From assembly GCA_046563655.1 (NCBI GenBank), contig JAJCTO010000009.1, forward strand, positions 434,001 to 498,000: a DNA stretch of 64,000 bases, given 5' to 3'. The notes under the pieces were generated by a model. The model did no database searches. It saw nothing but the letters and a program-made list of their open reading frames with translations, and was not told the DNA's origin. Of this stretch, positions 32,101-64,000 are shown piece after piece (positions within the stretch are counted from its first letter, which is position 1; every line of letters starts with the position of its first letter). This DNA comes from Yuukianura sp. NJ FZ-2021 (lineage: Eukaryota). Both the position numbers and the translations under genes were made by a program.

Positions 32101-35100
32101 ACTGACATACAAACTTATAGTAGCCACCATTGCCTCCATGAGAAGGAGCAAACAGATATTTTGGAAGCAATCTTGTACTAGAGAACGGTTTGATCAACAA
32201 AATGTGTAATGTCTACTCATTTTCGAAAATTTGTTGAATTAGAAACGGGGTTATGAACTGCTCGGCACTATTTTCTGTTATCGTCAAAGGAAGATTATCG
32301 GTACAACGTATTTTACCACAGAGAAATCCCCGCTGCTACAAGTGGCAGCTCTGACTGACATACAAACTTATAGTAGCCACCATAGCCTCCATGAGAAGGA
32401 GCAAACAGATATTTTGGAAGCAATCTTGTACTAGAGAACGGTGTGATCAACAAAATGTGTAATTTCCACTCATTTTCGAAAATTTGTTGAATTATAAACG
32501 GGGTTATGAACTGCTCGGCACTATTTTCTGTTATCGTCAAAGGAAGATTATCGGTACAACGTATTTTACCACAGAGAAATCCCCGCTGCTACAAGTGGCA
32601 GCTCTGACTGACATGCAAACTTATAGTAGCCACCATAGCCTCCATGAGAAGGAGCAAACAGATATTTTGAAAGCATTCTTGTACTAGAGAACGGTGTGAT
32701 CAACAAAATGTGTAATTTCCACTCATTTTCGAAAATTTGTTGAATTATAAACGGGGTTATGAACTGCTCGGCACTATTTTCTGTTATCGTCAAAGGAAGA
32801 TTATCGGTACAACGTATTTTACCACAGAGAAATCCCCGCTGCTACAAGTGGCAGCTCTGACTGACATGCAAACTTATAGTAGCCACCATAGCATCCATGA
32901 GAAGGAGCAAACAGATATTTTGAAAGCATTCTTGTACAAGAGAACGGTGTGATCAACAAAATGTGTAATTTCCACTCATTTTCGAAAATTTGTTGAATTA
33001 TAAACGGGGTTATGAACTGCTCGGCACTATTTTCTGTTATCGTCAAAGGAAGATTATCGGTACAACGTATTTTACCACAGAGAAATCCCCGCTGCTACAA
33101 GTGGCAGCTCTGACTGACATGCAAACTTATAGTAGCCACCATAGCCTCCATGAGAAGGAGCAAACAGATATTTTGAAAGCATTCTTGTACAAGAGAACGG
33201 TGTGATCAACAAAATGTGTAATTTCCACTCATTTTCGAAAATTTGTTGAATTATAAACGGGGTTATGAACTGCTCGGCACTATTTTCTGTTATCGTCAAA
33301 GGAAGATTATCGGTACAACGTATTTTACCACAGAGAAATCCCCGCTGCTACAAGTGGCAGCTCTGACTGACATACAAACTTATAGAAGCCACCATAGCCT
33401 CCATGAGACGGAGCAAACAGATATTTTGGAAGCAATCTTGTACTAGAGAACGGTGTGATCAACAAAATGTGTAATGTCTACTCATTTTCGAAAATTTGTT
33501 GAATTAGAAACGGGGTTATGAACTGCTCGGCACTATTTTCTGTTATCGTCAAAGGAAGATTATCGGTACAACGTATTTTACCACAGAGAAATCCCCGCTG
33601 CTACAAGTGGCAGCTCTGACTGACATACAAACTTATAGAAGCCACCATAGCCTCCATGAGAAGGAGCAAACAGATATTTTGGAAGCAATCTTGTACTAGA
33701 GAACGGTTTGATCAACAAAATGTGTAATGTCTACTCATTTTCGAAAATTTGTTGAATTAGAAACGGGGTTATGAACTGCTCGGCACTATTTTCTGTTATC
33801 GTCAAAGGAAGATTATCGGTACAACGTATTTTACCACAGAGAAATCCCCGCTGCTACAAGTGGCAGCTCTGACTGACATACAAACTTATAGAAGCCACCA
33901 TAGCCTCCATGAGAAGGAGCAAACAGATATTTTGGAAGCAATCTTGTACTAGAGAACGGTGTGATCAACAAAATGTGTAATTTCCACTCATTTTCGAAAA
34001 TTTGTTGAATTATAAACGGGGTTATGAACTGCTCGGCACTATTTTCTATTATCGTCAAAGGAAGATTATCGGTACAACGTATTTTACCACAGAGAAATCC
34101 CCGCTGCTACAAGTGGCAGCTCTGACTGACATGCAAACTTATAGTAGCCACCATAGCATCCATGAGAAGGAGCAAACAGATATTTTGAAAGCATTCTTGT
34201 ACAAGAGAACGGTGTGATCAACAAAATGTGTAATTTCCACTCATTTTCGAAAATTTGTTGAATTATAAACGGGGTTATGAACTGCTCGGCACTATTTTCT
34301 GTTATCGTCAAAGGAAGATTATCGGTACAACGTATTTTACCACAGAGAAATCCCCGCTGCTACAAGTGGCAGCTCTGACTGACATGCAAACTTATAGTAG
34401 CCACCATAGCCTCCATGAGAAGGAGCAAACAGATATTTTGAAAGCATTCTTGTACAAGAGAACGGTGTGATCAACAAAATGTGTAATTTCCACTCATTTT
34501 CGAAAATTTGTTGAATTATAAACGGGGTTATGAACTGCTCGGCACTATTTTCTGTTATCGTTAAAGGAAGATTATCGGTACAACGTATTTTACCACAGAG
34601 AAATCCCCGCTGCTACAAGTGGCAGCTCTGAGTGACATGCAAACTTATAGTAGCCACCATAGCCTCCATGAGAAGGAGCAAACAGATATTTTGAAAGCAT
34701 TCTTGTACAAGAGAACGGTGTGATCAACAAAATGTGTAATTTCCACTCATTTTCGAAAATTTGTTGAATTAGAAACGGGGTTATGAACTGCTCGGCACTA
34801 TTTTCTGTTATCGTCAAAGGAAGATTATCGGTACAACGTATTTTACCACAGAGAAATCCCCGCTGCTACAAGTGGCAGCTCTGACTGACATACAAACTTA
34901 TAGAAGCCACCATAGCCTCCATGAGACGGAGCAAACAGATATTTTGGAAGCAATCTTGTACTAGAGAACGGTGTGATCAACAAAATGTGTAATGTCTACT
35001 CATTTTCGAAAATTTGTTGAATTAGAAACGGGGTTATGAACTGCTCGGCACTATTTTCTGTTATCGTCAAAGGAAGATTATCGGTACAACGTATTTTACC

Positions 35101-38100
35101 ACAGAGAAATCCCCGCTGCTACAAGTGGCAGCTCTGACTGACATACAAACTTATAGAAGCCACCATAGCCTCCATGAGAAGGAGCAAACAGATATTTTGG
35201 AAGCAATCTTGTACTAGAGAACGGTGTGATCAACAAAATGTGTAATGTCTACTCATTTTCGAAAATTTGTTGAATTAGAAACGGGGTTATGAACTGCTCG
35301 GCACTATTTTCTGTTATCGTCAAAGGAAGATTATCGGTACAACGTATTTTACCACAGAGAAATCCCCGCTGCTACAAGTGGCAGCTCTGACTGACATGCA
35401 AACTTATAGTAGCCACCATAGCCTCCATGAGAAGGAGCAAACAGATATTTTGAAAGCATTCTTGTACAAGAGAACGGTGTGATCAACAAAATGTGTAATT
35501 TCCACTCATTTTCGAAAATTTGTTGAATTATAAACGGGGTTATGAACTGCTCGGCACTATTTTCTGTTATCGTCAAAGGAAGATTATCGGTACAACGTAT
35601 TTTACCACAGAGAAATCCCCGCTGCTACAAGTGGCAGCTCTGACTGACATGCAAACTTATAGTAGCCACCATAGCCTCCATGAGAAGGAGCAAACAGATA
35701 TTTTGAAAGCATTCTTGTACAAGAGAACGGTGTGATCAACAAAATGTGTAATTTCCACTCATTTTCGAAAATTTGTTGAATTATAAACGGGGTTATGAAC
35801 TGCTCGGCACTATTTTCTGTTATCGTTAAAGGAAGATTATCGGTACAACGTATTTTACCACAGAGAAATCCCCGCTGCTACAAGTGGCAGCTCTGAGTGA
35901 CATGCAAACTTATAGTAGCCACCATAGCCTCCATGAGAAGGAGCAAACAGATATTTTGAAAGCAATCTTGTACTAGAGAACGGTGTGATCAACAAAATGT
36001 GTAATGTCTACTCATTTTCGAAAATTTGTTGAATTATAAACGGGGTTATGAACTGCTCGGCACTATTTTCTGTTATCGTCAAAGGAAGATTATCGGTACA
36101 ACGTATTTTACCACAGAGAAATCCCCGCTGCTACAAGTGGCAGCTCTGACTGACATGCAAACTTATAGTAGCCACCATAGCCTCCATGAGAAGGAGCAAA
36201 CAGATATTTTGAAAGCAATCTTGTACTAGAGAACGGTGTGATCAACAAAATGTGTAATGTCTACTCATTTTCGAAAATTTGTTGAATTAGAAACGGGGTT
36301 ATGAACTGCTCGGCACTATTTTCTGTTATCGTCAAAGGAAGATTATCGGTACAACGTATTTTACCACAGAGAAATCCCCGCTGCTACAAGTGGCAGCTCT
36401 GACTGACATACAAACTTATAGAAGCCACCATAGCCTCCATGAGAAGGAGCAAACAGATATTTTGGAAGCAATCTTGTACTAGAGAACGGTGTGATCAACA
36501 AAATGTGTAATGTCTACTCATTTTCGAAAATTTGTTGAATTAGAAACGGGGTTATGAACTGCTCGGCACTATTTTCTGTTATCGTCAAAGGAAGATTATC
36601 GGTACAACGTATTTTACCACAGAGAAATCCCCGCTGCTACAAGTGGCAGCTCTGACTGACATACAAACTTATAGAAGTCACCATAGCCTCCATGAGAAGG
36701 AGCAAACAGATATTTTGGAAGCAATCTTGTACTAGAGAACGGTTTGATCAACAAAATGTGTAATGTCTACTCATTTTCGAAAATTTGTTGAATTAGAAAC
36801 GGGGTTATGAACTGCTCGGCACTATTTTCTGTTATCGTCAAAGGAAGATTATCGGTACAACGTATTTTACCACAGAGAAATCCCCGCTGCTACAAGTGGC
36901 AGCTCTGACTGACATACAAACTTATAGAAGCCACCATAGCCTCCATGAGAAGGAGCAAACAGATATTTTGGAAGCAATCTTGTACTAGAGAACGGTGTGA
37001 TCAACAAAATGTGTAATTTCCACTCATTTTCGAAAATTTGTTGAATTATAAACGGGGTTATGAACTGCTCGGCACTATTTTCTGTTATCGTCAAAGGAAG
37101 ATTATCGGTACAACGTATTTTACCACAGAGAAATCCCCGCTGCTACAAGTGGCAGCTCTGACTGACATGCAAACTTATAGTAGCCACCATAGCATCCATG
37201 AGAAGGAGCAAACAGATATTTTGAAAGCATTCTTGTACTAGAGAACGGTGTGATCAACAAAATGTGTAATTTCCACTCATTTTCGAAAATTTGTTGAATT
37301 TATAAACGGGGTTATGAACTGCTCGGCACTATTTTCTGTTATCGTCAAAGGAAGATTATCGGTACAACGTATTTTACCACAGAGAAATCCCCGCTGCTAC
37401 AAGTGGCAGCTCTGACTGACATGCAAACTTATAGTAGCCACCATAGCATCCATGAGAAGGAGCAAACAGATATTTTGAAAGCATTCTTGTACAAGAGAAC
37501 GGTGTGATCAACAAAATGTGTAATTTCCACTCATTTTCGAAAATTTGTTGAATTATAAACGGGGTTATGAACTGCTCGGCACTATTTTCTGTTATCGTCA
37601 AAGGAAGATTATCGGTACAACGTATTTTACCACAGAGAAATCCCCGCTGCTACAAGTGGCAGCTCTGACTGACATGCAAACTTATAGTAGCCACCATAGC
37701 CTCCATGAGAAGGAGCAAACAGATATTTTGAAAGCAATCTTGTACTAGAGAACGGTGTGATCAACAAAATGTGTAATTTCCACTCATTTTCGAAAATTTG
37801 TTGAATTAGAAACGGGGTTATGAACTGCTCGGCACTATTTTCTGTTATCGTCATAGGAAGATTATCGGTACAACGTATTTTACCACAGAGAAATCCCCGC
37901 TGCTACAAGTGGCAGCTCTGACTGACATGCAAACTTATAGTAGCCACCATAGCATCCATGAGAAGGAGCAAACAGATATTTTGAAAGCATTCTTGTACAA
38001 GAGAACGGTGTGATCAACAAAATGTGTAATTTCCACTCATTTTCGAAAATTTGTTGAATTATAAACGGGGTTATGAACTGCTCGGCACTATTTTCTGTTA

Positions 38101-41100
38101 TCGTTAAAGGAAGATTATCGGTACAACGTATTTTACCACAGAGAAATCCCCGCTGCTACAAGTGGCAGCTCTGAGTGACATGCAAACTTATAGTAGCCAC
38201 CATAGCCTCCATGAGAAGGAGCAAACAGATATTTTGGAAGCAATCTTGTACTAGAGAACGGTTTGATCAACAAAATGTGTAATGTCTACTCATTTTCGAA
38301 AATTTGTTGAATTAGAAACGGGGTTATGAACTGCTCGGCACTATTTTCTGTTATCGTCGAAGGAAGATTATCGGTACAACGTATTTTACCACAGAGAAAT
38401 CCCCGCTGCTACAAGTGGCAGCTCTGACTGACATACAAACTTATAGTAGCCACCATAGCCTCCATGAGAAGGAGCAAACAGATATTTTGAAAGCATTCTT
38501 GTACAAGAGAACGGTGTGATCAACAAAATGTGTAATTTCCACTCATTTTCGAAAATTTGTTGAATTATAAACAGGGTTATGAACTGCTCGGCACTATTTT
38601 TTGTTATCGTCAATGGAAGATTATCGGTACAACGTATTTTACCACAGAGAAATCCCCGCTGCTACAAGTGGCAGCTCTGACTGACATGCAAACTTATAGT
38701 AGCCACCATAGCCTCCATGAGAAGGAGCAAACAGATATTTTGCAAGCAATCTTGTACTAGAGAACGGTGTGATCAACAAAATGTGTAATGTCTACTCATT
38801 TTCGAAAATTTGTTGAATTAGAAACGGGGTTATGAACTGCTCGGCACTATTTTCTGTTATCGTCAAAGGAAGATTATCGGTACAACGTATTTTACCACAG
38901 AGAAATCCCCGCTGCTACAAGTGGCAGCTCTGACTGACATACAAACTTATAGAAGCCACCATAGCCTCCATGAGAAGGAGCAAACAGATATTTTGGAAGC
39001 AATCTTGTACTAGAGAACGGTGTGATCAACAAAATGTGTAATGTCTACTCATTTTCGAAAATTTGTTGAATTATAAACGGGGTTATGAACTGCTCGGCAC
39101 TCTTTTCTGTTATCGTCGAGGGAAGATTATCGGTACAACGTATTTTACCACAGAGAAATCCCCGCTGCTACAAGTGGCAGCTCTGACTGACATACAAACT
39201 TATAGAAGCCACCATAGCCTCCATGAGAAGGAGCAAACAGATATTTTGAAAGCAATCTTGTACTAGAGAACGGTTTGATCAACAAAATGTGTAATGTCTA
39301 CTCATTTTCGAAAATTTGTTGAATTAGAAACGGGGTTATGAACTGCTCGGCACTATTTTCTGTTATCGTCAAAGGAAGATTATCGGTACAACGTATTTTA
39401 CCACAGAGAAATCCCCGCTGCTACAAGTGGCAGCTCTGACTGACATACAAACTTATAGAAGCCACCATAGCCTCCATGAGAAGGAGCAAACAGATATTTT
39501 GGAAGCAATCTTGTACTAGAGAACGGTTTGATCAACAAAATGTGTAATGTCTACTCATTTTCGAAAATTTGTTGAATTAGAAACGGGGTTATGAACTGCT
39601 CGGCACTATTTTCTGTTATCGTCAAAGGAAGATTATCGGTACAACGTATTTTACCACAGAGAAATCCCCGCTGCTACAAGTGGCAGCTCTGACTGACATA
39701 CAAACTTATAGTAGCCACCATAGCCTCCATGAGAAGGAGCAAACAGATATTTTGGAAGCAATCTTGTACTAGAGAACGGTGTGATCAACAAAATGTGTAA
39801 TTTCCACTCATTTTCGAAAATTTGTTGAATTATAAACGGGGTTATGAACTGCTCGGCACTATTTTCTGTTATCGTCAAAGGAAGATTATCGGTACAACGT
39901 ATTTTACCACAGAGAAATCCCCGCTGCTACAAGTGGCAGCTCTGACTGACATGCAAACTTATAGTAGCCACCATAGCCTCCATGAGAAGGAGCAAACAGA
40001 TATTTTGAAAGCAATCTTGTACTAGAGAACGGTGTGATCAACAAAATGTGTAATGTCTACTCATTTTCGAAAATTTGTTGAATTAGAAACGGGGTTATGA
40101 ACTGCTCGGCACTATTTTCTGTTATCGTCAAAGGAAGATTATCGGTACAACGTATTTTACCACAGAGAAATCCCCGCTGCTACAAGTGGCAGCTCTGACT
40201 GACATACAAACTTATAGAAGCCACCATAGCCTCCATGAGAAGGAGCAAACAGATATTTTGGAAGCAATCTTGTACTAGAGAACGGTTTGATCAACAAAAT
40301 GTGTAATGTCTACTCATTTTCGAAAATTTGTTGAATTAGAAACGGGGTTATGAACTGCTCGGCACTATTTTCTGTTATCGTCAAAGGAAGATTATCGGTA
40401 CAACGTATTTTACCACAGAGAAATCCCCGCTGCTACAAGTGGCAGCTCTGACTGACATACAAACTTATAGAAGCCACCATAGCCTCCATGAGAAGGAGCA
40501 AACAGATATTTTGGAAGCAATCTTGTACTAGAGAACGGTGTGATCAACAAAATGTGTAATTTCCACTCATTTTCGAAAATTTGTTGAATTATAAACGGGG
40601 TTATGAACTGCTCGGCACTATTTTCTATTATCGTCAAAGGAAGATTATCGGTACAACGTATTTTACCACAGAGAAATCCCCGCTGCTACAAGTGGCAGCT
40701 CTGACTGACATGCAAACTTATAGTAGCCACCATAGCATCCATGAGAAGGAGCAAACAGATATTTTGAAAGCATTCTTGTACAAGAGAACGGTGTGATCAA
40801 CAAAATGTGTAATTTCCACTCATTTTCGAAAATTTGTTGAATTATAAACGGGGTTATGAACTGCTCGGCACTATTTTCTGTTATCGTCAAAGGAAGATTA
40901 TCGGTACAACGTATTTTACCACAGAGAAATCCCCGCTGCTACAAGTGGCAGCTCTGACTGACATGCAAACTTATAGTAGCCACCATAGCATCCATGAGAA
41001 GGAGCAAACAGATATTTTGAAAGCATTCTTGTACAAGAGAACGGTGTGATCAACAAAATGTGTAATTTCCACTCATTTTCGAAAATTTGTTGAATTATAA

Positions 41101-44100
41101 ACGGGGTTATGAACTGCTCGGCACTATTTTCTGTTATCGTCAAAGGAAGATTATCGGTACAACGTATTTTACCACAGAGAAATCCCCGCTGCTACAAGTG
41201 GCAGCTCTGACTGACATGCAAACTTATAGTAGCCACCATAGCCTCCATGAGAAGGAGCAAACAGATATTTTGGAAGCAATCTTGTACTAGAGAACGGTTT
41301 GATCAACAAAATGTGTAATGTCTACTCATTTTCGAAAATTTGTTGAATTAGAAACGGGGTTATGAACTGCTCGGCACTATTTTCTGTTATCGTCAAAGGA
41401 AGATTATCGGTACAACGTATTTTACCACAGAGAAATCCCCGCTGCTACAAGTGGCAGCTCTGACTGACATGCAAACTTATAGTAGCCACCATAGCCTCCA
41501 TGAGAAGGAGCAAACAGATATTTTGAAAGCATTCTTGTACAAGAGAACGGTGTGATCAACAAAATGTGTAATTTCCACTCATTTTCGAAAATTTGTTGAA
41601 TTATAAACGGGGTTATGAACTGCTCGGCACTATTTTCTGTTATCGTCAAAGGAAGATTATCGGTACAACGTATTTTACCACAGAGAAATCCCCGCTGCTA
41701 CAAGTGGCAGCTCTGACTGACACGCAAACTTATAGTAGCCACCATAGCCTCCATGAGAAGGAGCAAACAGATATTTTGGAAGCAATCTTGTACTAGAGAA
41801 CGGTGTGATCAACAAAATGTGTAATGTCTACTCATTTTCCAAAATTTGTTGAATTAGAAACGGGGTTATGAACTGCTCGGCACTATTTTCTGTTATCGTC
41901 AAAGGAAGATTATCGGTACAACGTATTTTACCACAGAGAAATCCCCGCTGCTACAAGTGGCAGCTCTGACTGACATACAAACTTATAGAAGCCACCATAG
42001 CCTCCATGAGAAGGAGCAAACAGATATTTTGGAAGCAATCTTGTACTAGAGAACGGTGTGATCAACAAAATGTGTAATTTCCACTCATTTTCGAAAATTT
42101 GTTGAATTATAAACGGGGTTATGAACTGCTCGGCACTATTTTCTGTTATCGTCAAAGGAAGATTATCGGTACAACGTATTTTACCACAGAGAAATCCCCG
42201 CTGCTACAAGTGGCAGCTCTGACTGACATGCAAACTTATAGTAGCCACCATAGCCTCCATGAGAAGGAGCAAACAGATATTTTGAAAGCAATCTTGTACT
42301 AGAGAACGGTGTGATCAACAAAATGTGTAATGTCTACTCATTTTCGAAAATTTGTTGAATTAGAAACGGGGTTATGAACTGCTCGGCACTATTTTCTGTT
42401 ATCGTCAAAGGAAGATTATCGGTACAACGTATTTTACCACAGAGAAATCCCCGCTGCTACAAGTGGCAGCTCTGACTGACATACAAACTTATAGAAGTCA
42501 CCATAGCCTCCATGAGAAGGAGCAAACAGATATTTTGGAAGCAATCTTGTACTAGAGAACGGTTTGATCAACAAAATGTGTAATGTCTACTCATTTTCGA
42601 AAATTTGTTGAATTAGAAACGGGGTTATGAACTGCTCGGCACTATTTTCTGTTATCGTCAAAGGAAGATTATCGGTACAACGTATTTTACCACAGAGAAA
42701 TCCCCGCTGCTACAAGTGGCAGCTCTGACTGACATACAAACTTATAGAAGCCACCATAGCCTCCATGAGAAGGAGCAAACAGATATTTTGGAAGCAATCT
42801 TGTACTAGAGAACGGTGTGATCAACAAAATGTGTAATTTCCACTCATTTTCGAAAATTTGTTGAATTATAAACGGGGTTATGAACTGCTCGGCACTATTT
42901 TCTGTTATCGTCAAAGGAAGATTATCGGTACAACGTATTTTACCACAGAGAAATCCCCGCTGCTACAAGTGGCAGCTCTGACTGACATGCAAACTTATAG
43001 TAGCCACCATAGCCTCCATGAGAAGGAGCAAACAGATATTTTGAAAGCAATCTTGTACTAGAGAACGGTGTGATCAACAAAATGTGTAATTTCCACTCAT
43101 TTTCGAAAATTTGTTGAATTATAAACGGGGTTATGAACTGCTCGGCACTATTTTCTGTTATCGTCATAGGAAGATTATCGGTACAACGTATTTTACCACA
43201 GAGAAATCCCCGCTGCTACAAGTGGCAGCTCTGACTGACATGCAAACTTATAGTAGCCACCATAGCCTCCATGAGAAGGAGCAAACAGATATTTTGAAAG
43301 CATTCTTGTACTAGAGAACGGTGTGATCAACAAAATGTGTAATTTCCACTCATTTTCGAAAATTTGTTGAATTATAAACGGGGTTATGAACTGCTCGGCA
43401 CTATTTTCTGTTATCGTCAAAGGAAGATTATCGGTACAACGTATTTTACCACAGAGAAATCCCCGCTGCTACAAGTGGCAGCTCTGACTGACATGCAAAC
43501 TTATAGTAGCCACCATAGCCTCCATGAGAAGGAGCAAACAGATATTTTGGAAGCAATCTTGTACTAGAGAACGGTTTGATCAACAAAATGTGTAATGTCT
43601 ACTCATTTTCGAAAATTTGTTGAATTAGAAACGGGGTTATGAACTGCTCGGCACTATTTTCTGTTATCGTCAAAGGAAGATTATCGGTACAACGTATTTT
43701 ACCACAGAGAAATCCCCGCTGCTACAAGTGGCAGCTCTGACTGACATACAAACTTATAGAAGTCACCATAGCCTCCATGAGAAGGAGCAAACAGATATTT
43801 TGGAAGCAATCTTGTACTAGAGAACGGTTTGATCAACAAAATGTGTAATGTCTACTCATTTTCGAAAATTTGTTGAATTAGAAACGGGGTTATGAACTGC
43901 TCGGCACTATTTTCTGTTATCGTCAAAGGAAGATTATCGGTACAACGTATTTTACCACAGAGAAATCCCCGCTGCTACAAGTGGCAGCTCTGACTGACAT
44001 ACAAACTTATAGAAGCCACCATAGCCTCCATGAGAAGGAGCAAACAGATATTTTGGAAGCAATCTTGTACTAGAGAACGGTGTGATCAACAAAATGTGTA

Positions 44101-47100
44101 ATTTCCACTCATTTTCGAAAATTTGTTGAATTATAAACGGGGTTATGAACTGCTCGGCACTATTTTCTGTTATCGTCAAAGGAAGATTATCGGTACAACG
44201 TATTTTACCACAGAGAAATCCCCGCTGCTACAAGTGGCAGCTCTGACTGACATACAAACTTATAGAAGCCACCATAGCCTCCATGAGAAGGAGCAAACAG
44301 ATATTTTGGAAGCAATCTTGTACTAGAGAACGGTGTGATCAACAAAATGTGTAATTTCCACTCATTTTCGAAAATTTGTTGAATTATAAACGGGGTTATG
44401 AACTGCTCGGCACTATTTTCTGTTATCGTCAAAGGAAGATTATCGGTACAACGTATTTTACCACAGAGAAATCCCCGCTGCTACAAGTGGCAGCTCTGAC
44501 TGACATGCAAACTTATAGTAGCCACCATACCCTCCATGAGAAGGAGCAAACAGATATTTTGAAAGCAATCTTGTACTAGAGAACGGTGTGATCAACAAAA
44601 TGTGTAATGTCTACTCATTTTCGAAAATTTGTTGAATTAGAAACGGGGTTATGAACTGCTCGGCACTATTTTCTGTTATCGTCAAAGGAAGATTATCGGT
44701 ACAACGTATTTTACCACAGAGAAATCCCCGCTGCTACAAGTGGCAGCTCTGACTGACATACAAACTTATAGTAGCCACCATAGCCTCCATGAGAAGGAGC
44801 AAACAGATATTTTGGAAGCAATCTTGTACTAGACAACGGTGTGATCAACAAAATGTGTAATGTCTACTCATTTTCCAAAATTTGTTGAATTAGAAACGGG
44901 GTTATGAACTGCTCGGCACTATTTTCTGTTATCGTCAAAGGAAGATTATCGGTACAACGTATTTTACCACAGAGAAATCCCCGCTGCTACAAGTGGCAGC
45001 TCTGACTGACATACAAACTTATAGTAGCCACCATAGCCTCCATGAGAAGGAGCAAACAGATATTTTGGAAGCAATCTTGTACTAGAGAACGGTGTGATCA
45101 ACAAAATGTGTAATTTCCACTCATTTTCGAAAATTTGTTGAATTATAAACGGGGTTATGAACTGCTCGGCACTATTTTCTGTTATCGTCAAAGGAAGATT
45201 ATCGGTACAACGTATTTTACCACAGAGAAATCCCCGCTGCTACAAGTGGCAGCTCTGACTGACATGCAAACTTATAGTAGCCACCATAGCCTCCATGAGA
45301 AGGAGCAAACAGATATTTTGAAAGCAATCTTGTACTAGAGAACGGTGTGATCAACAAAATGTGTAATTTCCACTCATTTTCGAAAATTTGTTGAATTATA
45401 AACGGGGTTATGAACTGCTCGGCACTATTTTCTGTTATCGTCAAAGGAAGATTATCGGTACAACGTATTTTACCACAGAGAAATCCCCGCTGCTACAAGT
45501 GGCAGCTCTGACTGACATGCAAACTTATAGTAGCCACCATAGCCTCCATGAGAAGGAGCAAACAGATATTTTGAAAGCATTCTTGTACTAGAGAACGGTG
45601 TGATCAACAAAATGTGTAATTTCCACTCATTTTCGAAAATTTGTTGAATTATAAACGGGGTTATGAACTGCTCGGCACTATTTTCTGTTATCGTCAAAGG
45701 AAGATTATCGGTACAACGTATTTTACCACAGAGAAATCCCCGCTGCTACAAGTGGCAGCTCTGACTGACATGCAAACTTATAGTAGCCACCATAGCCTCC
45801 ATGAGAAGGAGCAAACAGATATTTTGGAAGCAATCTTGTACTAGAGAACGGTTTGATCAACAAAATGTGTAATGTCTACTCATTTTCGAAAATTTGTTGA
45901 ATTAGAAACGGGGTTATGAACTGCTCGGCACTATTTTCTGTTATCGTCGAAGGAAGATTATCGGTACAACGTATTTTACCGCAGAGAAATCCCCGCTGCT
46001 ACAAGTGGCAGCTCTGACTGACATACAAACTTATAGTAGCCACCATTGCCTCCATGAGAAGGAGCAAACAGATATTTTGAAAGCATTCTTGTATAAGAGA
46101 ACGGTGTGATCAACAAAATGTGTAATTTCCACTCATTTTCGAAAATTTGTTGAATTATAAACAGGGTTATGAACTGCTCGGCACTATTTTCTGTTATCGT
46201 CAAAGGAAGATTATCGGTACAACGTATTTTACCACAGAGAAATCCCCGCTGCTACAAGTGGCAGCTCTGACTGACATGCAAACTTATAGTAGCCACCATA
46301 GCCTCCATGAGAAGGAGCAAACAGATATTTTGAAAGCAATCTTGTACTAGAGAACGGTGTGATCAACAAAATGTGTAATGTCTACTCATTTTCGAAAATT
46401 TGTTGAATTAGAAACGGGGTTATGAACTGCTCGGCACTATTTTCTGTTATCGTCAAAGGAAGATTATCGGTACAACGTATTTTACCACAGAGAAATCCCC
46501 GCTGCTACAAGTGGCAGCTCTGACTGACATACAAACTTATAGTAGCCACCATTGCCTCCATGAGAAGGAGCAAACAGATATTTTGGAAGCAATCTTGTAC
46601 TAGAGAACGGTGTGATCAACAAAATGTGTAATTTCTACTCATTTCCGAAAATTTGTTGAATTATAAACGGGGTTATGAACTGCTCGGCACTATTTTCTGT
46701 TATCGTCAAAGGAAGATTATCGGTACAACGTATTTTACCACAGAGAAATCCCCGCTGCTACAAGTGGCAGCTCTGACTGACATGCAAACTTATAGTAGCC
46801 ACCATAGCCTCCATGAGAAGGAGCAAACAGATATTTTGAAAGCAATCTTGTACTAGAGAACGGTTTGATCAACAAAATGTGTAATGTCTACTCATTTTCG
46901 AAAATTTGTTGAATTAGAAACGGGGTTATGAACTGCTCGGCACTATTTTCTGTTATCGTCAAAGGAAGATTATCGGTACAACGTATTTTACCACAGAGAA
47001 ATCCCCCGCTGCTACAAGTGGCAGCTCTGACTGACATACAAACTTATAGAAGTCACCATAGCCTCCATGAGAAGGAGCAAACAGATATTTTGGAAGCAAT

Positions 47101-50100
47101 CTTGTACTAGAGAACGGTTTGATCAACAAAATGTGTAATGTCTACTCATTTTCGAAAATTTGTTGAATTAGAAACGGGGTTATGAACTGCTCGGCACTAT
47201 TTTCTGTTATCGTCAAAGGAAGATTATCGGTACAACGTATTTTACCACAGAGAAATCCCCGCTGCTACAAGTGGCAGCTCTGACTGACATACAAACTTAT
47301 AGTAGCCACCATAGCCTCCATGAGAAGGAGCAAACAGATATTTTGGAAGCAATCTTGTACTAGAGAACGGTGTGATCAACAAAATGTGTAATTTCCACTC
47401 ATTTTCGAAAATTTGTTGAATTATAAACGGGGTTATGAACTGCTCGGCACTATTTTCTGTTATCGTCAAAGGAAGATTATCGGTACAACGTATTTTACCA
47501 CAGAGAAATCCCCGCTGCTACAAGTGGCAGCTCTGACTGACATGCAAACTTATAGTAGCCACCATAGCCTCCATGAGAAGGAGCAAACAGATATTTTGAA
47601 AGCAATCTTGTACTAGAGAACGGTGCGATCAACAAAATGTGTAATTTCCACTCATTTTCGAAAATTTGTTGAATTATAAACGGGGTTATGAACTGCTCGG
47701 CACTATTTTCTGTTATCGTCAAAGGAAGATTATCGGTACAACGTATTTTACCACAGAGAAATCCCCGCTGCTACAAGTGGCAGCTCTGACTGACATGCAA
47801 ACTTATAGTAGCCACCATAGCCTCCATGAGAAGGAGCAAACAGATATTTTGAAAGCAATCTTGTACAAGAGAACGGTGTGATCAACAAAATGTGTAATTT
47901 CCACTCATTTTCGAAAATTTGTTGAATTATAAACGGGGTTATGAACTGCTCGGCACTATTTTCTGTTATCGTCAAAGGAAGATTATCGGTACAACGTATT
48001 TTACCACAGAGAAATCCCCGCTGCTACAAGTGGCAGCTCTGACTGACACGCAAACTTATAGTAGCCACCATAGCCTCCATGAGAAGGAGCAAACAGATAT
48101 TTTGGAAGCAATCTTGTACTAGAGAACGGTGTGATCAACAAAATGTGTAATGTCTACTCATTTTCCAAAATTTGTTGAATTAGAAACGGGGTTATGAACT
48201 GCTCGGCACTCTTTTCTGTTATCGTCGAAGGAAGATTATCGGTACAACGTATTTTACCACAGAGAAATCCCCGCTGCTACAAGTGGCAGCTCTGACTGAC
48301 ATACAAACTTATAGTAGCCACCATAGCCTCCATGAGAAGGAGCAAACAGATATTTTGAAAGCAATCTTGTACTAGAGAACGGTGTGATCAACAAAATGTG
48401 TAATTTCCACTCATTTTCGAAAATTTGTTGAATTATAAACGGGGTTATGAACTGCTCGGCACTATTTTCTGTTATCGTCAAAGGAAGATTATCGGTACAA
48501 CGTATTTTACCACAGAGAAATCCCCGCTGCTACAAGTGGCAGCTCTGACTGACATGCAAACTTATAGTAGCCACCATAGCCTCCATGAGAAGGAGCAAAC
48601 AGATATTTTGGAAGCAATCTTGTACTAGAGAACGGTTTGATCAACAAAATGTGTAATGTCTACTCATTTTCGAAAATTTGTTGAATTAGAAACGGGGTTA
48701 TGAACTGCTCGGCACTATTTTCTGTTATCGTCAAAGGAAGATTATCGGTACAACGTATTTTACCACAGAGAAATCCCCGCTGCTACAAGTGGCAGCTCTG
48801 ACTGACATACAAACTTATAGAAGCCACCATAGCCTCCATGAGAAGGAGCAAACAGATATTTTGGAAGCAATCTTGTACTAGACAACGGTGTGATCAACAA
48901 AATGTGTAATGTCTACTCATTTTCCAAAATTTGTTGAATTAGAAACGGGGTTATGAACTGCTCGGCACTCTTTTCTGTTATCGTCGAGGGAAGATTATCG
49001 GTACAACGTATTTTACCACAGAGAAATCCCCGCTGCTACAAGTGGCAGCTCTGACTGACACGCAAACTTATAGTAGCCACCATAGCCTCCATGAGAAGGA
49101 GCAAACAGATATTTTGAAAGCAATCTTGTACTAGAGAACGGTGTGATCAACAAAATGTGTAATGTCTACTCATTTTCGAAAATTTGTTGAATTAGAAACG
49201 GGGTTATGAACTGCTCGGCACTATTTTCTGTTATCGTCAAAGGAAGATTATCGGTACAACGTATTTTACCACAGAGAAATCCCCGCTGCTACAAGTGGCA
49301 GCTCTGACTGACATACAAACTTATAGTAGCCACCATTGCCTCCATGAGAAGGAGCAAACAGATATTTTGAAAGCATTCTTGTACAAGAGAACGGTGTGAT
49401 CAACAAAATGTGTAATTTCCACTCATTTTCGAAAATTTGTTGAATTATAAACGGGGTTATGAACTGCTCGGCACTATTTTCTGTTATCGTCAAAGGAAGA
49501 TTATCGGTACAACGTATTTTACCACAGAGAAATCCCCGCTGCTACAAGTGGCAGCTCTGACTGACATGCAAACTTATAGTAGCCACCATAGCCTCCATGA
49601 GAAGGAGCAAACAGATATTTTGAAAGCAATCTTGTACTAGAGAACGGTGTGATCAACAAAATGTGTAATTTCCACTCATTTTCGAAAATTTGTTGAATTA
49701 TAAACGGGGTTATGAACTGCTCGGCACTATTTTCTGTTATCGTCAAAGGAAGATTATCGGTACAACGTATTTTACCACAGAGAAATCCCCGCTGCTACAA
49801 GTGGCAGCTCTGACTGACATGCAAACTTATAGTAGCCACCATAGCCTCCATGAGAAGGAGCAAACAGATATTTTGAAAGCAATCTTGTACTAGAGAACGG
49901 TGTGATCAACAAAATGTGTAATTTCCACTCATTTTCGAAAATTTGTTGAATTATAAACGGGGTTATGAACTGCTCGGCACTATTTTCTGTTATCGTCAAA
50001 GGAAGATTATCGGTACAACGTATTTTACCACAGAGAAATCCCCGCTGCTACAAGTGGCAGCTCTGACTGACATGCAAACTTATAGTAGCCACCATAGCCT

Positions 50101-53100
50101 CCATGAGAAGGAGCAAACAGATATTTTGAAAGCATTCTTGTACTAGAGAACGGTGTGATCAACAAAATGTGTAATTTCCACTCATTTTCGAAAATTTGTT
50201 GAATTATAAACGGGGTTATGAACTGCTCGGCACTATTTTCTGTTATCGTCAAAGGAAGATTATCGGTACAACGTATTTTACCACAGAGAAATCCCCGCTG
50301 CTACAAGTGGCAGCTCTGACTGACATGCAAACTTATAGTAGCCACCATAGCCTCCATGAGAAGGAGCAAACAGATATTTTGGAAGCAATCTTGTACTAGA
50401 GAACGGTTTGATCAACAAAATGTGTAATGTCTACTCATTTTCGAAAATTTGTTGAATTAGAAACGGGGTTATGAACTGCTCGGCACTATTTTCTGTTATC
50501 GTCAAAGGAAGATTATCGGTACAACGTATTTTACCACAGAGAAATCCCCGCTGCTACAAGTGGCAGCTCTGACTGACATACAAACTTATAGTAGCCACCA
50601 TTGCCTCCATGAGAAGGAGCAAACAGATATTTTGAAAGCATTCTTGTACAAGAGAACGGTGTGATCAACAAAATGTGTAATTTCCACTCATTTTCGAAAA
50701 TTTGTTGAATTATAAACGGGGTTATGAACTGCTCGGCACTATTTTCTGTTATCGTCAAAGGAAGATTATCGGTACAACGTATTTTACCACAGAGAAATCC
50801 CCGCTGCTACAAGTGGCAGCTCTGACTGACATGCAAACTTATAGTAGCCACCATAGCCTCCATGAGAAGGAGCAAACAGATATTTTGCAAGCAATCTTGT
50901 ACTAGAGAACGGTTTGATCAACAAAATGTGTAATGTCTACTCATTTTCGAAAATTTGTTGAATTAGAAACGGGGTTATGAACTGCTCGGCACTATTTTCT
51001 GTTATCGTCAAAGGAAGATTATCGGTACAACGTATTTTACCACAGAGAAATCCCCGCTGCTACAAGTGGCAGCTCTGACTGACATACAAACTTATAGAAG
51101 CCACCATAGCCTCCATGAGAAGGAGCAAACAGATATTTTGGAAGCAATCTTGTACTAGACAACGGTGTGATCAACAAAATGTGTAATTTCTACACATTTT
51201 CGAAAATTTGTTGAATTATAAACGGGGTTATGAACTGCTCGGCACTCTTTTCTGTTATCGTCAAAGGAAGATTATCGGTACAACGTATTTTACCACAGAG
51301 AAATCCCCGCTGCTACAAGTGGCAGCTCTGACTGACATGCAAACTTATAGTAGGCACCATAGCCTCCGTGAGAAGGAGCAAACAGATATTTTGAAAGCAA
51401 TCTTGTACTAGAGAACGGTTTGATCAACAAAATGTGTAATGTCTACTCATTTTCGAAAATTTGTTGAATTAGAAACGGGGTTATGAACTGCTCGGCACTA
51501 TTTTCTGTTATCGTCAAAGGAAGATTATCGGTACAACGTATTTTACCACAGAGAAATCCCCGCTGCTACAAGTGGCAGCTCTGACTGACATACAAACTTA
51601 TAGAAGCCACCATAGCCTCCATGAGAAGGAGCAAACAGATATTTTGGAAGCAATCTTGTAGTAGAGAACGGTGTGATCAACAAAATGTGTAATGTCTACT
51701 CATTTTCGATTTGTTGAATTATAAACGGGGTTATGAACTGCTCGGCACTCTTTCCTGTTATCGTCGATGGAAGATTATCGGTACAACGTATTTTACCACA
51801 GAGAAATCCCCGCTGCTACAAGTGGCAGCTCTGACTGACATGCAAACTTATAGTAGCCACCATACCCTCCATGAGAAGGAGCAAACAGATATTTTGAAAG
51901 CAATCTTGTACTAGAGAACGGTGTGATCAACAAAATGTGTAATGTCTACTCATTTTCGAAAATTTGTTGAATTAGAAACGGGGTTATGAACTGCTCGGCA
52001 CTATTTTCTGTTATCGTCAAAGGAAGATTATCGGTACAACGTATTTTACCACAGAGAAACCCCGCTGCTACAAGTGGCAGCTCTGACTGACATACAAACT
52101 TATAGAAGTCACCATAGCCTCCATGAGAAGGAGCAAACAGATATTTTGGAAGCAATCTTGTACTAGAGAACGGTTTGATCAACAAAATGTGTAATGTCTA
52201 CTCATTTTCGAAAATTTGTTGAATTAGAAACGGGGTTATGAACTGCTCGGCACTATTTTCTGTTATCGTCAAAGGAAGATTATCGGTACAACGTATTTTA
52301 CCACAGAGAAATCCCCGCTGCTACAAGTGGCAGCTCTGACTGACATACAAACTTATAGAAGCCACCATAGCCTCCATGAGAAGGAGCAAACAGATATTTT
52401 GGAAGCAATCTTGTACTAGAGAACGGTGTGATCAACAAAATGTGTAATTTCCACTCATTTTCGAAAATTTGTTGAATTATAAACGGGGTTATGAACTGCT
52501 CGGCACTATTTTCTGTTATCGTCAAAGGAAGATTATCGGTACAACGTATTTTACCACAGAGAAATCCCCGCTGCTACAAGTGGCAGCTCTGACTGACACG
52601 CAAACTTATAGTAGCCACCATAGCCTCCATGAGAAGGAGCAAACAGATATTTTGGAAGCAATCTTGTACTAGAGAACGGTGTGATCAACAAAATGTGTAA
52701 TTTCCACTCATTTTCGAAAATTTGTTGAATTATAAACGGGGTTATGAACTGCTCGGCACTATTTTCTGTTATCGTCAAAGGAAGATTATCGGTACAACGT
52801 ATTTTACCACAGAGAAATCCCCGCTGCTACAAGTGGCAGCTCTGACTGACATACAAACTTATAGAAGCCACCATAGCCTCCATGAGAAGGAGCAAACAGA
52901 TATTTTGGAAGCAATCTTGTACTAGAGAACGGTGTGATCAACAAAATGTGTAATTTCCACTCATTTTCGAAAATTTGTTGAATTATAAACGGGGTTATGA
53001 ACTGCTCGGCACTATTTTCTATTATCGTCAAAGGAAGATTATCGGTACAACGTATTTTACCACAGAGAAATCCCCGCTGCTACAAGTGGCAGCTCTGACT

Positions 53101-55935
53101 GACATGCAAACTTATAGTAGGCACCATAGCCTCCGTGAGAAGGAGCAAACAGATATTTTGAAAGCAATCTGGTACTAGAGAACGGTGTGATCAACAAAAT
53201 GTGTAATTTCTACTCATTTCCGAAAATTTGTTGAATTATAAACAGCGCTATGAACTGCTCGGCACTCTTTCCTGTTATCGTCGATGGAAGATTATCGGTA
53301 CAACGTATTTTACCACAGAGAAATCCCCGCTGCTACAAGTGGCACCTCTGAATGACATGCAAACTTATAGTAGGCACCATAGCCTCCGTGAGAAGGAGCA
53401 AACAGATATTTTGAAAGCAATCTTGTACTAGAGAACGGTTTGATCAACAAAATGTGTAATGTCTACTCATTTTCGAAAATTTGTTGAATTAGAAACGGGG
53501 TTATGAACTGCTCGGCACTATTTTCTGTTATCGTCAAAGGAAGATTATCGGTACAACGTATTTTACCACAGAGAAATCCCCGCTGCTACAAGTGGCAGCT
53601 CTGACTGACATACAAACTTATAGAAGCCACCATAGCCTCCATGAGACGGAGCAAACAGATATTTTGGAAGCAATCTTGTACTAGAGAACGGTGTGATCAA
53701 CAAAATGTGTAATTTCTACTCATTTCCGAAAATTTGTTGAATTATAAACAGCGCTATGAACTGCTCGGCACTCTTTCCTGTTATCGTCGATGGAAGATTA
53801 TCGGTACAACGTATTTTACCACAGAGAAATCCCCGCTGCTACAAGTGGCAGCTCTGAATGACATGCAAACTTATAGTAGGCACCATAGCCTCCGTGAGAA
53901 GGAGCAAACAGATATTTTGAAAGCAATCTTGTACTAGAGAACGGTGTGATCAACAAAATGTGTAATGTCTACTCATTTTCGAAAATTTGTTGAATTAGAA
54001 ACGGGGTTATGAACTGCTCGGCACTATTTTCTGTTATCGTCAAAGGAAGATTATCGGTACAACGTATTTTACCACAGAGAAACCCCGCTGCTACAAGTGG
54101 CAGCTCTGACTGACATACAAACTTATAGAAGTCACCATAGCCTCCATGAGAAGGAGCAAACAGATATTTTGGAAGCAATCTTGTACTAGAGAACGGTTTG
54201 ATCAACAAAATGTGTAATGTCTACTCATTTTCGAAAATTTGTTGAATTAGAAACGGGGTTATGAACTGCTCGGCACTATTTTCTGTTATCGTCAAAGGAA
54301 GATTATCGGTACAACGTATTTTACCACAGAGAAACCCCGCTGCTACAAGTGGCAGCTCTGACTGACATACAAACTTATAGAAGTCACCATAGCCTCCATG
54401 AGAAGGAGCAAACAGATATTTTGGAAGCAATCTTGTACTAGAGAACGGTGTGATCAACAAAATGTGTAATTTCCACTCATTTTCGAAAATTTGTTGAATT
54501 ATAAACGGGGTTATGAACTGCTCGGCACTATTTTCTATTATCGTCAAAGGAAGATTATCGGTACAACGTATTTTACCACAGAGAAATCCCCGCTGCTACA
54601 AGTGGCAGCTCTGACTGACATGCAAACTTATAGTAGCCACCATAGCATCCATGAGAAGGAGCAAACAGATATTTTGGAAGCAATCTTGTACTAGAGAACG
54701 GTGTGATCAACAAAATGTGTAATTTCCACTCATTTTCGAAAATTTGTTGAATTATAAACGGGGTTATGAACTGCTCGGCACTATTTTCTATTATCGTCAA
54801 AGGAAGATTATCGGTACAACGTATTTTACCACAGAGAAATCCCCGCTGCTACAAGTGGCAGCTCTGACTGACATACAAACTTGTAGAAGCCACCATAGCC
54901 TCCATGAGAAGGAGCAAACAGATATTTTGGAAGCAATCTTGTACTAGAGAACGGTGTGATCAACAAAATGTGTAATTTCCACTCATTTTCGAAAATTTGT
55001 TGAATTATAAACGGGGTTATGAACTGCTCGGCACTATTTTCTATTATCGTCAAAGGAAGATTATCGGTACAACGTATTTTACCACAGAGAAATCCCCGCT
55101 GCTACAAGTGGCAGCTCTGACTGACATGCAAACTTATAGTAGCCACCATAGCCTCCGTGAGAAGGAGCAAACAGATATTTTGAAAGCAATCTTGTACTAG
55201 AGAACGGTGTGATCAACAAAATGTGTAATGTCTACTCATTTTCGAAAATTTGTTCAATTAGAAGCGTGGTTATGAACAGCTCGGCACTATTTTCTGTTAT
55301 CGTCGAAGGAAGATTATCGGTACAACGTATTTTACCGCAGAGAAATCCACGCTGCTACAAGTGGCAGCTCTGACTGACATACAAACTTATAGTAGCCACC
55401 ATTGCCTCCATGAGAAGGAGCAAACAGATATTTTGAAAGCATTCTTGTACAAGAGAACGGTCTGATCAACAAAATGTGTAATTTCCACTCATTTTCGAAA
55501 ATTTGTTGAATTATAAACGGGGTTATGAACTGCTCGGCACTATTTTCTATTATCGTCAAAGGAAGATTATCGGTACAACGTATTTTACCACAGAGAAATC
55601 CCCGCTGCTACAAGTGGCAGCTCTGACTGACATGCAAACTTATAGTAGCCACCATAGCCTCCATGAGAAGGAGCAAACAGATATTTTGAAAGCATTCTTG
55701 TACAAGAGAACGGTGTGATCAACAAAATGTGTAATTTCCACTCATTTTCGAAAATTTGTTGAATTATAAACGGGGTTATGAACTGCTCGGCACTATTTTC
55801 TGTTATCGTCAAAGGAAGATTAACGGTACAACGTATTTTACCACAGAGAAACCCCGCTGCTACAAGTGGCAGCTCTGACTGACATACAAACTTATAGAAG
55901 TCACCATAGCCTCCATGAGAAGGAGCAAACAGATA
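8130..55935. repeat. 253-bp tandem satellite array, ~189 head-to-tail copies (candidate centromeric/pericentromeric satellite)
   Basis: Period 253 throughout with a limited set of recurring substitutions. Starts at TGAATTATAAACGGGG and ends mid-monomer at ...GAGCAAACAGATA. Confidence 0.99.
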
Positions 55936-56215
55936 AGCTATAGTCATCTTGAAGGGAATTTCCACTTTTTCAAAATTGCACCCCCCCCCCTTTTTTTTTC
56001 ATCCCCCCCCCCCTCCCACACCCCTCACTGGGAAAAAAAAAACTAAAAAGTTAATAGTTTAATGAAATAATTAAAAGGTCACAAAAAGGAAAAAAGTGTT
56101 ACTATAGAAACACAAAAGTACTCCAAAGGAAATGTTTGTTTTTGAAAAAGAAAAAGAAAAAGACAAGGTCAAATTTTAGAAAAGGAGGCCATTCCGAGTT
56201 TGAACTTTGTTCAAG

Positions 56216-57004
56216 ATGGTCGCCTCAAGAATGGCTCCTCTCTTGTTCTGTTTCTTTTGTCTGCTCCACTTCGTTTCAAGCCGACCGTGGTGCCAATTGC
56301 TGAACAGCGCATGTTCAGATTGCGTTTCTGCTGGATGTTTCTTTGGAGTTCTGCTTGAGGATGGAAGAGCTGTTTGCTTCGCTGGAGGATTCCTGGGAGG
56401 TCTCCCACTTGCTTTTTCTGTGGGGCCAAGAACCAACTGTCCATCGCCAACTCCAGCGCCATCTACTACAACAACTTCAGATGGAAGAATTTCCTTGGAA
56501 CTAAAGCTTCTCTTGTCCATTGCGCATGAGCAAACTTCTACTTCGACACAATCAAGCACTTCAACTACTCCGAAGCTTCCAACCACTTCTGCGCATGACA
56601 ACTTTGGAACTTTTTTGCTTCTTTTTGGATTCTTAGGTAACTATTACAAGTTACAATTGCACAAATCAACGAAAAATTTGTACTCTAATTAGAATTTTGA
56701 TTTTATTTCAGTTTTCATGCTGATTCTGATTGCTGTTTGGATTCTACTACGCAAAAGGCGATGTCAAGTTCGGAGAGGTCAAAGGTCACTGGAGATTTTT
56801 TCATTGGAAAATCCAAACTATACTGGAATCGAATCACCCGAGCCATCTCTAGGCGAGCAGTCTCCGGAATCTAGCGTCAACACTTCTCCAGAAAACTCGC
56901 CAGTTGCTGTTCTTCCCAAAAGAGGGCGCTTTAGTGCAGATGGTGTCTACCGGACATTTTTTGGACGCAGGTCAATTCTGCCAACAAGATACAAGCCTTT
57001 CTAA
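56216..57004 (+). CDS. Type-I membrane glycoprotein: signal peptide, 6-Cys PSI-like domain, Ser/Thr mucin stalk, TM, cytoplasmic NPxY; exons 56216-56636, 56712-57004 (237 aa)
   Basis: GT-AG intron 56637-56711 joins the two ORFs in frame, giving one continuous TM helix (FLLLFGFLVFMLILIAVWILL) followed by RKRR. AATAAA follows at ~57073. Confidence 0.75.
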
Positions 57005-57136
57005 CACAATTCATTTCTAATTCTATTGTTACTCAGTTATTGTACTAATTTTTCTAAAAGTTATCATTTTGAAATAAAGTTTATTGTTGTTTATTTTTGA
57101 CAATCAGTTTGTTTTTAGCCTTTGTCGAGCGTAGAC

Positions 57137-58191
57137 ATGGAAACTAAGCAAAAATATACAAATTTGGAAAATGTAAAGAGTTTTTCAGGCCTTTCTACAT
57201 TTCTACGCGGAGAAGCAAATAAATCCAAAAAAACAAAAGAACTTCAAACGTTGCCAAGTTATAGTTTGTTCAAGCCAGTAAAATTAAAGTACATTGAGCG
57301 TCAAACTTTTGTTCCATTTCCATTCCACACGTTTGGCATGGACTTAATGTCTGTCCAGAACGTGTCACGGAAAAACAAGGGAATCAACTGGATTCTTATT
57401 ACAGTTGATCTCTTTTCACGTAAGCTCTACACTGCATTTTTAAAGAAAAAGAATGCAGTGTCTGTGGAGGAAGGAATCCGGAAGGTCTTTCAAGAATCTG
57501 GCCAACGTCCACACTTTGTCCTTGTAGACAGGGTATGTACCCCAGTCCCCCCCCCCCCAATTTAAATATTATTTATATACGTCAATTTCTTTGAAACAAT
57601 AGGGACGAGAGTTTTACAATAGGAAGGTTCAGACTCTCTTTCAGACATTGAATTTCAAAATGTATTCGGTGCACTCCATGAACAAATGCAGCATATGCGA
57701 ACGTGTACAGTTGACCTTGAGAACCAAACTCGCTCGTGTCCAAAACCAGACTGAGACCCCGGGCAAGTTTCTGGACGTGTGGGATCAGCTAGTTAAAAAT
57801 TACAACAATACTTATCATTCGAGCATCAAGATGGCGCCCAATGACGTCACCGTCGAAAACAGTGACGTAGTTTTTCGTAACCTTTATGGCAAAACTATTG
57901 AAACTCAAAAGCGTATAAAACCACGATACAAGGTCGGTGACCAGGTCAGAATATCCACTGCAAGGGTCACGTTCACAAAGGCTTCTACTGTTGAAAAGTG
58001 GTCACGTGAGATTTTTCGTATCATTGCCGTTCACAAGTCCAACGTGGCTTACTATTTCTTGGAGGATCTTCAAGGAGAACCCATAATTGGTAAGTTGCCC
58101 CCACCCCCACCGCATGTCAAATGTTTAAAACAATAACTTTGTTGATTTTCCAGGAACATTTGTGCAAGAGGAGCTCAACAAAGTATCTTAG
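57137..58191 (+). CDS. Maverick retroviral-like DDE integrase; exons 57137-57532, 57603-58089, 58154-58191 (306 aa)
   Basis: Motifs FGMDL...TVDLFSRK, D-R-G-R-E-F-Y-N (restored by intron 57533-57602), ICERVQLT, YNNTYHSSIKMAP, YKVGDQVRIS, WSREIF and GEPIIGTFVQEELNKV (restored by intron 58090-58153). Confidence 0.92.
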
Positions 58192-58193
58192 CC

Positions 58194-59924: not shown

Positions 59925-60028
59925 GAGAAGCGGATGACCCCGGTGACTTTAGTCTGTGTTTAGTTCTCTTCGTGGACACACGTATGCGACAAGTTCTCTG
60001 TGACAAAATATCGTGCAAGTTGAAACCC

Positions 60029-61701: not shown

Positions 61702-61702
61702 G

Positions 61703-62236: not shown

Positions 62237-62402
62237 AAATCTACCCTCGCTAACATAACCTCAACTCTGTGTTCTAGTACCTTTATTGCCCTTTCGTGAG
62301 GGTAAAGTTGAACTTCGACGGGAGTTGCATTTTTTGTAGTCATTTGCATTTTGGTCTGCAGAGGGAGAGGTCGATCACATTTTGTAGTGCAATAGAGTAA
62401 TA

Positions 62403-62894: not shown

Positions 62895-62953
62895 GTAAGA
62901 CAGGTTTTATTTACAGAATTTTGAAAAATAATAAAAAACGCACTTTCACTCAA

Positions 62954-63968: not shown

Positions 63969-64000
63969 CTTATCATACATTTATAGATGAACAAAAACAA

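Follow-up and report, generated by a model that had tools for sequence, protein, structure and literature searches.

A candidate two-exon gene for a small type I membrane protein beside the integrase of a Maverick/Polinton-like element

In the 64,000 nucleotides of Yuukianura sp. NJ FZ-2021 analyzed here (referred to as the window), the integrase gene of a Maverick/Polinton-like element is directly preceded by a two-exon gene model on the plus strand (56216-56636 and 56712-57004, joined via a single 75-nt GT-AG intron), whose translation is predicted to yield a small type I membrane protein. The reading that is tentatively preferred, and that should be seen as a possibility falling somewhat short of probable, places this gene in the accessory (cargo) region of the element and assigns to its product a lineage-specific use in the interaction with the host.

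The stretch 56216-57004 contains two plus-strand open reading frames, and in-script splicing of the two exons gives a frame of 714 nt that encodes 237 aa without any internal stop (Table 1). The start ATG at 56216 lies in a good context (caagATGG) and is preceded by an in-frame stop at 56201, five codons upstream. The presumed splice donor (tag/GTAACT at 56637) and acceptor (TTTCAG/ at 56711) lie within the region that encodes the predicted membrane helix, which spans the exon junction and is whole only after splicing. Retention of the intron would end the frame and leave a hydrophobic run of about 12 residues.

Table 1. Features of the window in order of position, with the evidence or remark that goes with each.
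Feature	Position	Strand	Basis or remark
253-bp satellite array, about 189 units, 48 kb	8130..55981		ends about 234 bp upstream of the ATG
Exon 1, 421 nt	56216..56636	+	signal peptide, six-Cys module, Ser/Thr stalk, first half of membrane helix
Predicted signal peptide, residues 1-22	56216..56281	+	judged by shape: hydrophobic core, V-S-S before R23
Six-cysteine module, Cys26 to Cys75	56291..56440	+	translation; without Pfam or PDB match
Ser/Thr/Pro-rich stalk, residues 77-128	56444..56599	+	S/T 24/52
Predicted membrane helix, residues 130-153, split by intron	56603..56749	+	uncharged 24-residue run
Intron, 75 nt, phase 1, GTAACT...TTTCAG, GC 0.24	56637..56711	+	canonical GT-AG sites
Exon 2, 293 nt including TAA stop	56712..57004	+	second half of membrane helix, 84-residue cytoplasmic tail
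RKRR basic stop-transfer cluster, residues 154-157, then Cys158	56750..56761	+	translation
LENPNY (hydrophobic-x-NPxY), residues 172-177	56804..56821	+	overlaps YTGI (YxxPhi), residues 177-180
AATAAA polyadenylation-like signal	57073..57078	+	69 nt past the stop
Integrase gene, three exons, introns 57533-57602 and 58090-58153, spliced 306 aa without stop	57137..58191	+	rve match in exon 1, below the Pfam cut-off
356-aa ORF	58194-59264	+	ORF list; nothing in Pfam
IAP gene: BIR (3.6e-13) and C3HC4 RING (1.7e-11)	within 59164-59924	+	Pfam; different reading frames in this copy
Lys/Arg-rich (basic) ORF	about 60030-60337	+	translation
Major-capsid-like gene, two exons, 60-nt intron 61531-61590, spliced 434 aa	60337..61701	+	ESM Atlas
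177-aa ORF	61703-62236	+	ORF list; nothing in Pfam
Coiled-coil ORF	62403-62705	+	translation
Minus-strand ORFs	63082-63969	-	translation

The first-pass annotation of this DNA had listed a signal peptide, a cysteine pattern, a Thr/Ser stalk, a transmembrane segment, an RKRR cluster, an ENPNY motif and several SP sites. All of these are present in the translations and in the spliced model, and the spliced translation likewise has the type I membrane architecture that had been claimed. The cysteines of the predicted ectodomain occupy positions 26, 33, 36, 41, 54 and 75, corresponding to the spacing C-x6-C-x2-C-x4-C-x12-C-x20-C, and a scan of the translated sequence found this part of the protein to be devoid of N-x-S/T sequons. 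The putative membrane helix reaches a Kyte-Doolittle peak of 3.12 over 19 residues. As for the proposed NPxY signal, the motif stands in a hydrophobic-x-NPxY context, 19 residues past the end of the helix (residue 153) in the predicted cytoplasmic tail near the membrane, as is characteristic of such signals. The tail additionally carries two further YxxPhi motifs beyond YTGI as well as four S/T-P sites at residues 182, 191, 199 and 203.

A real gene is probably present at this locus. In a test with 20000 residue shuffles, the observed membrane helix was equalled by none, the S/T cluster by 2, the N-terminal hydrophobic core by 58 and the cysteine cluster by 155, while NPxY arose in 134; as the features were picked after the sequence had been seen, these counts are indications only and not clean probabilities. 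The order and clustering of the protein features are unusual. Codon usage was scored after training on 1618 codons, drawn from eight ORF stretches in the adjoining element, with the minus-strand stretches 63082-63447 and 63448-63969 left out (the chosen frames contained stops). It supports exon 2, whose sense frame scores 0.101 and thus best of all six frames, and is ambiguous for exon 1, whose sense frame scores 0.081 versus 0.159 in one antisense frame; the eight element stretches themselves range from 0.06 to 0.20. Overall, the coding evidence is moderate.

The locus might alternatively hold no functional gene at all, but just an ORF that arose by chance or has decayed in T-rich DNA, with a translation that resembles a membrane protein by accident, which is considered unlikely. 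The window offers some precedent for such an accident in four chance stop-to-stop ORFs of 120-137 aa inside its tandem repeats and in an antisense ORF of 154 aa that overlaps exon 1, which is why ORF length by itself is not decisive. The weak codon score of exon 1, below that of one antisense frame, the absence of detected homologues (see below) and the low confidence of the single-sequence AlphaFold2 models (pLDDT 49 for the 140-aa query and 58 for residues 23-80) would agree with this view as well. An accident would, however, have to account for many independent signals that are ordered correctly on one strand: the start context, the signal peptide, an even number of clustered cysteines and the stalk all line up, a phase-correct canonical intron then completes the helix, and the basic anchor, the sorting motifs, the stop and AATAAA follow. 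The top rank of the sense frame of exon 2 among its six frames also argues for a gene.

The virus-like neighbourhood described in the first-pass annotation is borne out by a putative intron-bearing rve integrase, a capsid-like ORF of the double-jelly-roll kind and an IAP gene combining BIR and RING. In exon 1 of the integrase, rve is matched with an E-value of 0.0029 and 18.3 bits, below the Pfam cut-off of 32.6 bits, the domain being split by an intron. In the ESM Atlas, the clusters closest to the capsid-like ORF bear the names DJR-like_dom, F54H12.2-like and Major capsid protein (scores 0.97-0.98), a feature-based lead without E-value in which 14-16% of the cluster members carry the name DJR-like_dom. 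It is this cluster lead that points to the double-jelly-roll major capsid protein of a Maverick/Polinton, whereas the sequence searches gave no match for the ORF.

The genes follow each other in the order integrase, 356-aa ORF, basic ORF, capsid and 177-aa ORF, of which we tentatively take the 356-aa ORF to be the minor capsid protein and the 177-aa ORF to be the protease, labels that go by position. The IAP gene sits inside this core module, with the 356-aa ORF on one side and the basic ORF on the other. The order agrees with the module of integrase, minor capsid, PW, major capsid and protease of vertebrate Mavericks, which, in the accessible part of the source, also have a second module on the other strand that points inward and accessory regions that flank the core modules (PMC8097293). 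In the window, the core genes for the integrase and the capsid-like protein contain short canonical GT-AG introns (60-70 nt), and removal of each one restores the open frame; the same part of that source reports intact vertebrate Mavericks as intronless (PMC8097293). Between the coiled-coil ORF and the minus-strand genes, there is a direct repeat of 108 bp with two units that are 92% alike (62681-62894).

The membrane-protein gene is somewhat more likely than not to be part of this element. Its position upstream of the integrase, which the first-pass annotation had regarded as element-encoded territory, is indeed where Mavericks reportedly carry accessory or cargo genes, and for nematode Mavericks intron-bearing cargo genes are placed between the left inverted repeat and the integrase, as far as the available portions of the two sources go (PMC8097293; bioRxiv 10.1101/2022.07.12.499685). 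The gene stop and the integrase ATG are separated by 132 nt on the same strand, so that there is little room for a terminal repeat between them, and the gene's 75-nt intron falls into one short size class with the three introns of the integrase and capsid-like genes (60-70 nt). The window holds only one end of the element, which runs past base 64000, and neither a terminal inverted repeat nor a target duplication could be placed within it; the 234 bp of unique DNA that lead from the satellite to the ATG (55982-56215) likewise have no inverted partner within the window.

Further information came from the contigs of three DNA runs of one sample, which were aligned to the window and of which run X1 may be the window's source. 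In run X1, one 2837-nt contig without differences bridges 55982-58818 and takes in the gene together with the integrase and the beginning of the gene that follows. In the listed 24 of the 158 contig pieces, diverged copies (about 80-90% alike) cover the integrase parts 57102-57277, 57655-57784 and 57897-58006, with a similarity that starts at about 57102-57104, a short way before the integrase ATG, and the membrane-protein gene is covered by exact pieces only. On these listed pieces, the gene is therefore not visibly shared among the other Maverick copies of the sample, which fits a variable accessory gene and a flanking host gene alike. Run X3 contributes pieces that are 95-99% alike over 58789-64000; it leaves 56205-56473 without cover and 56474-57011 at very low depth, where missing cover proves nothing. 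A loose end at 56714 in run X1 is uninterpretable. As to the other element copies of the sample, some are about 80-90% alike over the integrase (within 57102-59309), and copies in run X3 are about 98-99% alike over the right-hand genes (59280-64000). There are thus hints of mosaic element copies with different left modules.

Against this background, the gene may also be a host gene or remnant that merely adjoins a Maverick inserted beside it, in which case the true element end would lie between the gene stop and the integrase start; we rate this as a minor possibility. It would be in keeping with the failure to find an inverted repeat in the window and with the onset of similarity to the diverged integrase copies, no diverged piece extending over the gene among those listed. 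Moreover, the gene has its own AATAAA and a 132-nt spacer, as opposed to the packed arrangement of the next element genes, where only 2 nt separate the integrase stop from the following ATG. Yet these same 132 bp would be the most that is left for a terminal repeat plus the integrase promoter, and a position between a 48-kb satellite and a transposon would be an unusual one for a functional host gene. Strand and short-intron class are the same as in the element genes. Homologues were found in no other organism, which is unexpected for a conserved host gene, with the caveat that the lineage is poorly covered in databases.

The satellite on the left side of the gene consists of 253-bp units that are about 97% alike between neighbours and has no similarity to the 8 kb of the element that lie in the window or to a 402-bp repeat farther upstream. 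It may represent host heterochromatin or else a terminal repeat of the element that has expanded. The 402-bp tandem repeat (744-8123) runs on both sides of an inserted LINE, a non-LTR retrotransposon on the minus strand (2499-6129) with a coiled-coil ORF1, an endonuclease and an RVT_1 match at 4.7e-31.

The search for relatives left the protein an orphan. With the product of exon 1 (140 aa) as query, a word-based search of 5.8 billion proteins returned no match and hmmscan against Pfam-A no family at a maximum E-value of 10, a nominal limit given that the HMMER filters drop most matches above about 0.1. For neither exon product did Pfam report any family at E<=10, CD164/endolyn (MGC-24) and adenovirus E3 included. 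A phmmer search against 1.84 billion representatives gave two matches to the exon 1 product at E<=0.001, both of which were set aside as bacterial repeat or low-complexity proteins. A sequence search of the PDB with the same query yielded only rows at E 0.27-1.1, and the ESM Atlas held no usable match. The exon 2 product found no match among longer proteins, and its single row in the PDB (E 0.55) was judged compositional. Viral contigs and metagenome contigs contained no locus related to the membrane protein or to the capsid-like ORF. As a control, the element's own capsid-like ORF was run through the word-based search, the PDB and Pfam and also gave no match; the orphan status is consequently weak evidence of novelty, since the libraries cover the lineage poorly. 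The kinship with CD164- or PTTG1IP-like proteins that had been suggested in the first-pass annotation found no backing, as neither the word-based search, Pfam and phmmer nor the search of longer proteins with exon 2 returned a homologue. Residues 35-59 (56318-56392) show weak similarity, below threshold, to individual repeats of beta-lactamase inhibitor protein II and likewise to a bacterial repeat protein; AlphaFold2 renders these residues, which make up the second half of the cysteine-rich head, as a low-confidence beta hairpin.

In integrin-beta proteins, a PSI head is paired with a tail that bears a tyrosine signal. A PSI-like domain had been ascribed to the head of the window protein as well. 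This label could not be upheld. According to the accessible text of the source, PSI domains have seven conserved cysteines and two CXXC motifs (PMC9604360), versus six cysteines and a single CXXC (Cys33-x-x-Cys36) in the present head, in which the place of the second motif is left without a second cysteine. Pfam gave nothing at E<=10, and no PSI chain came up in the PDB, either by sequence or by fold. For the latter, Foldseek was run against the PDB with the low-confidence model and returned no match at E<=0.001 and nothing below E 3.9, with no PSI chain in 50 rows.

Conceivably, the head could still be a true but degenerate PSI domain and the gene a captured and shortened host PSI receptor of the PTTG1IP or integrin-beta type, although we regard this as improbable. 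The first four cysteines are spaced in a PSI-like manner, including the one CXXC, and PTTG1IP, as described in the portion of the source at hand, is a 180-aa protein in which a signal peptide and a PSI domain are combined with a membrane helix as well as basic and tyrosine sorting signals (PMC5551380). The unmatched PSI profile in Pfam and the deviating cysteine and CXXC counts argue against such an origin. The two phmmer matches were both to bacterial repeat proteins, and the weak PDB similarities are confined to the repeats of beta-lactamase inhibitor protein II over residues 34-59, a hairpin motif and not a PSI domain. The 50 Foldseek rows contain no PSI chain either, although the models are too poor to decide on the fold. 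In its layout, the window protein does resemble PTTG1IP (PBF), since a signal peptide, a small cysteine-rich head, one helix, a basic stretch and a tyrosine sorting signal follow in the same order. PBF has N-glycosylation sites at N45 and N54, whereas the head of the window protein has no sequon, and the window protein adds a mucin-like stalk and NPxY, leaves the PSI profile unmatched and shows no sequence homology. It may be likened to the PTTG1IP family in layout, but is not assignable to it.

To return to the preferred reading of an accessory gene of the element, the closest parallel is provided by the cargo genes of nematode Mavericks as far as the available text describes them. Like these, the gene directly precedes the integrase on the outer margin of the integrase-capsid-protease module, bears an intron and shows low or absent conservation between copies. 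Unlike the known cargo, which in the same text comprises proteases and kinases, it would encode a small membrane protein, and in the window the core genes of the element bear introns, too. Nematode Mavericks also carry MFUS-1, a glycoprotein-B-like fusogen that is described in the accessible text as a type I protein with signal peptide and one membrane helix and to this extent resembles the product predicted here. However, MFUS-1 has 866 aa and a class III fusogen fold. With 237 aa, a head of roughly 50 residues and no detectable relation to it, the window protein is too small for a fusogen of this type. A literature search that extended to the main text of Maverick papers, to the degree that this was accessible, retrieved no small mucin-like type I membrane protein in Mavericks; supplementary gene tables may list such ORFs.

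A functional analogy is offered by adenovirus, a virus of the same capsid lineage as the Mavericks. Its E3 proteins (RID, CR1) are small accessory type I membrane proteins that remove host surface receptors and possess tyrosine-based sorting signals in their tails. NPxY and YxxPhi tail signals engage PTB-domain adaptors and AP-2 for clathrin uptake. The window protein is like the E3 proteins in being a predicted small accessory type I membrane protein with tyrosine motifs in the tail and, by this comparison, may work likewise, even though it has no match to any E3 family in Pfam.

If the gene is expressed and spliced as modelled, its signal peptide would direct the product into the ER, where three disulfides could steady the head of roughly 50 residues and the Ser/Thr stalk may be O-glycosylated in a mucin-like fashion. 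The single helix and the basic anchor would then fix the protein in the membrane, with possible palmitoylation of the cysteine next to the anchor. In the tail, the overlapping hydrophobic-x-NPxY and YxxPhi motifs together with the two further YxxPhi motifs could recruit PTB-domain and AP-2 clathrin adaptors, by which the protein would cycle between the cell surface and endosomes. On this route, a host surface molecule might be pulled down or mimicked in the manner of the adenovirus E3 membrane proteins.

Judged from these short motifs, a manipulation of the host cell in adenovirus E3 style, next to the element-borne IAP, would be the most plausible function, and a role as virion component is unlikely. 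The first-pass annotation had thought of egress, superinfection exclusion or an immune decoy, each of which is a conjecture. A more far-reaching version would have it that this animal Maverick lineage acquired or made de novo an E3-style surface glycoprotein that is taken up with clathrin via NPxY/YxxPhi and is used together with the IAP to manipulate the host cell, for example by receptor removal or a block of superinfection. We consider this version a long shot. The gene is an orphan with one exact copy in one sample and, as a candidate, establishes nothing yet.

Should the far-reaching version prove true, Mavericks would gain their first described host-surface modulator in this protein, and such "transposons" would run a virus-like host-interaction programme. 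Mavericks are increasingly viewed as endogenous viruses, whose accessory regions house genes for host interaction and genes that move horizontally. A membrane glycoprotein with endocytic signals beside an element-borne apoptosis inhibitor would strengthen the case for an infection-style programme in some animal Mavericks.
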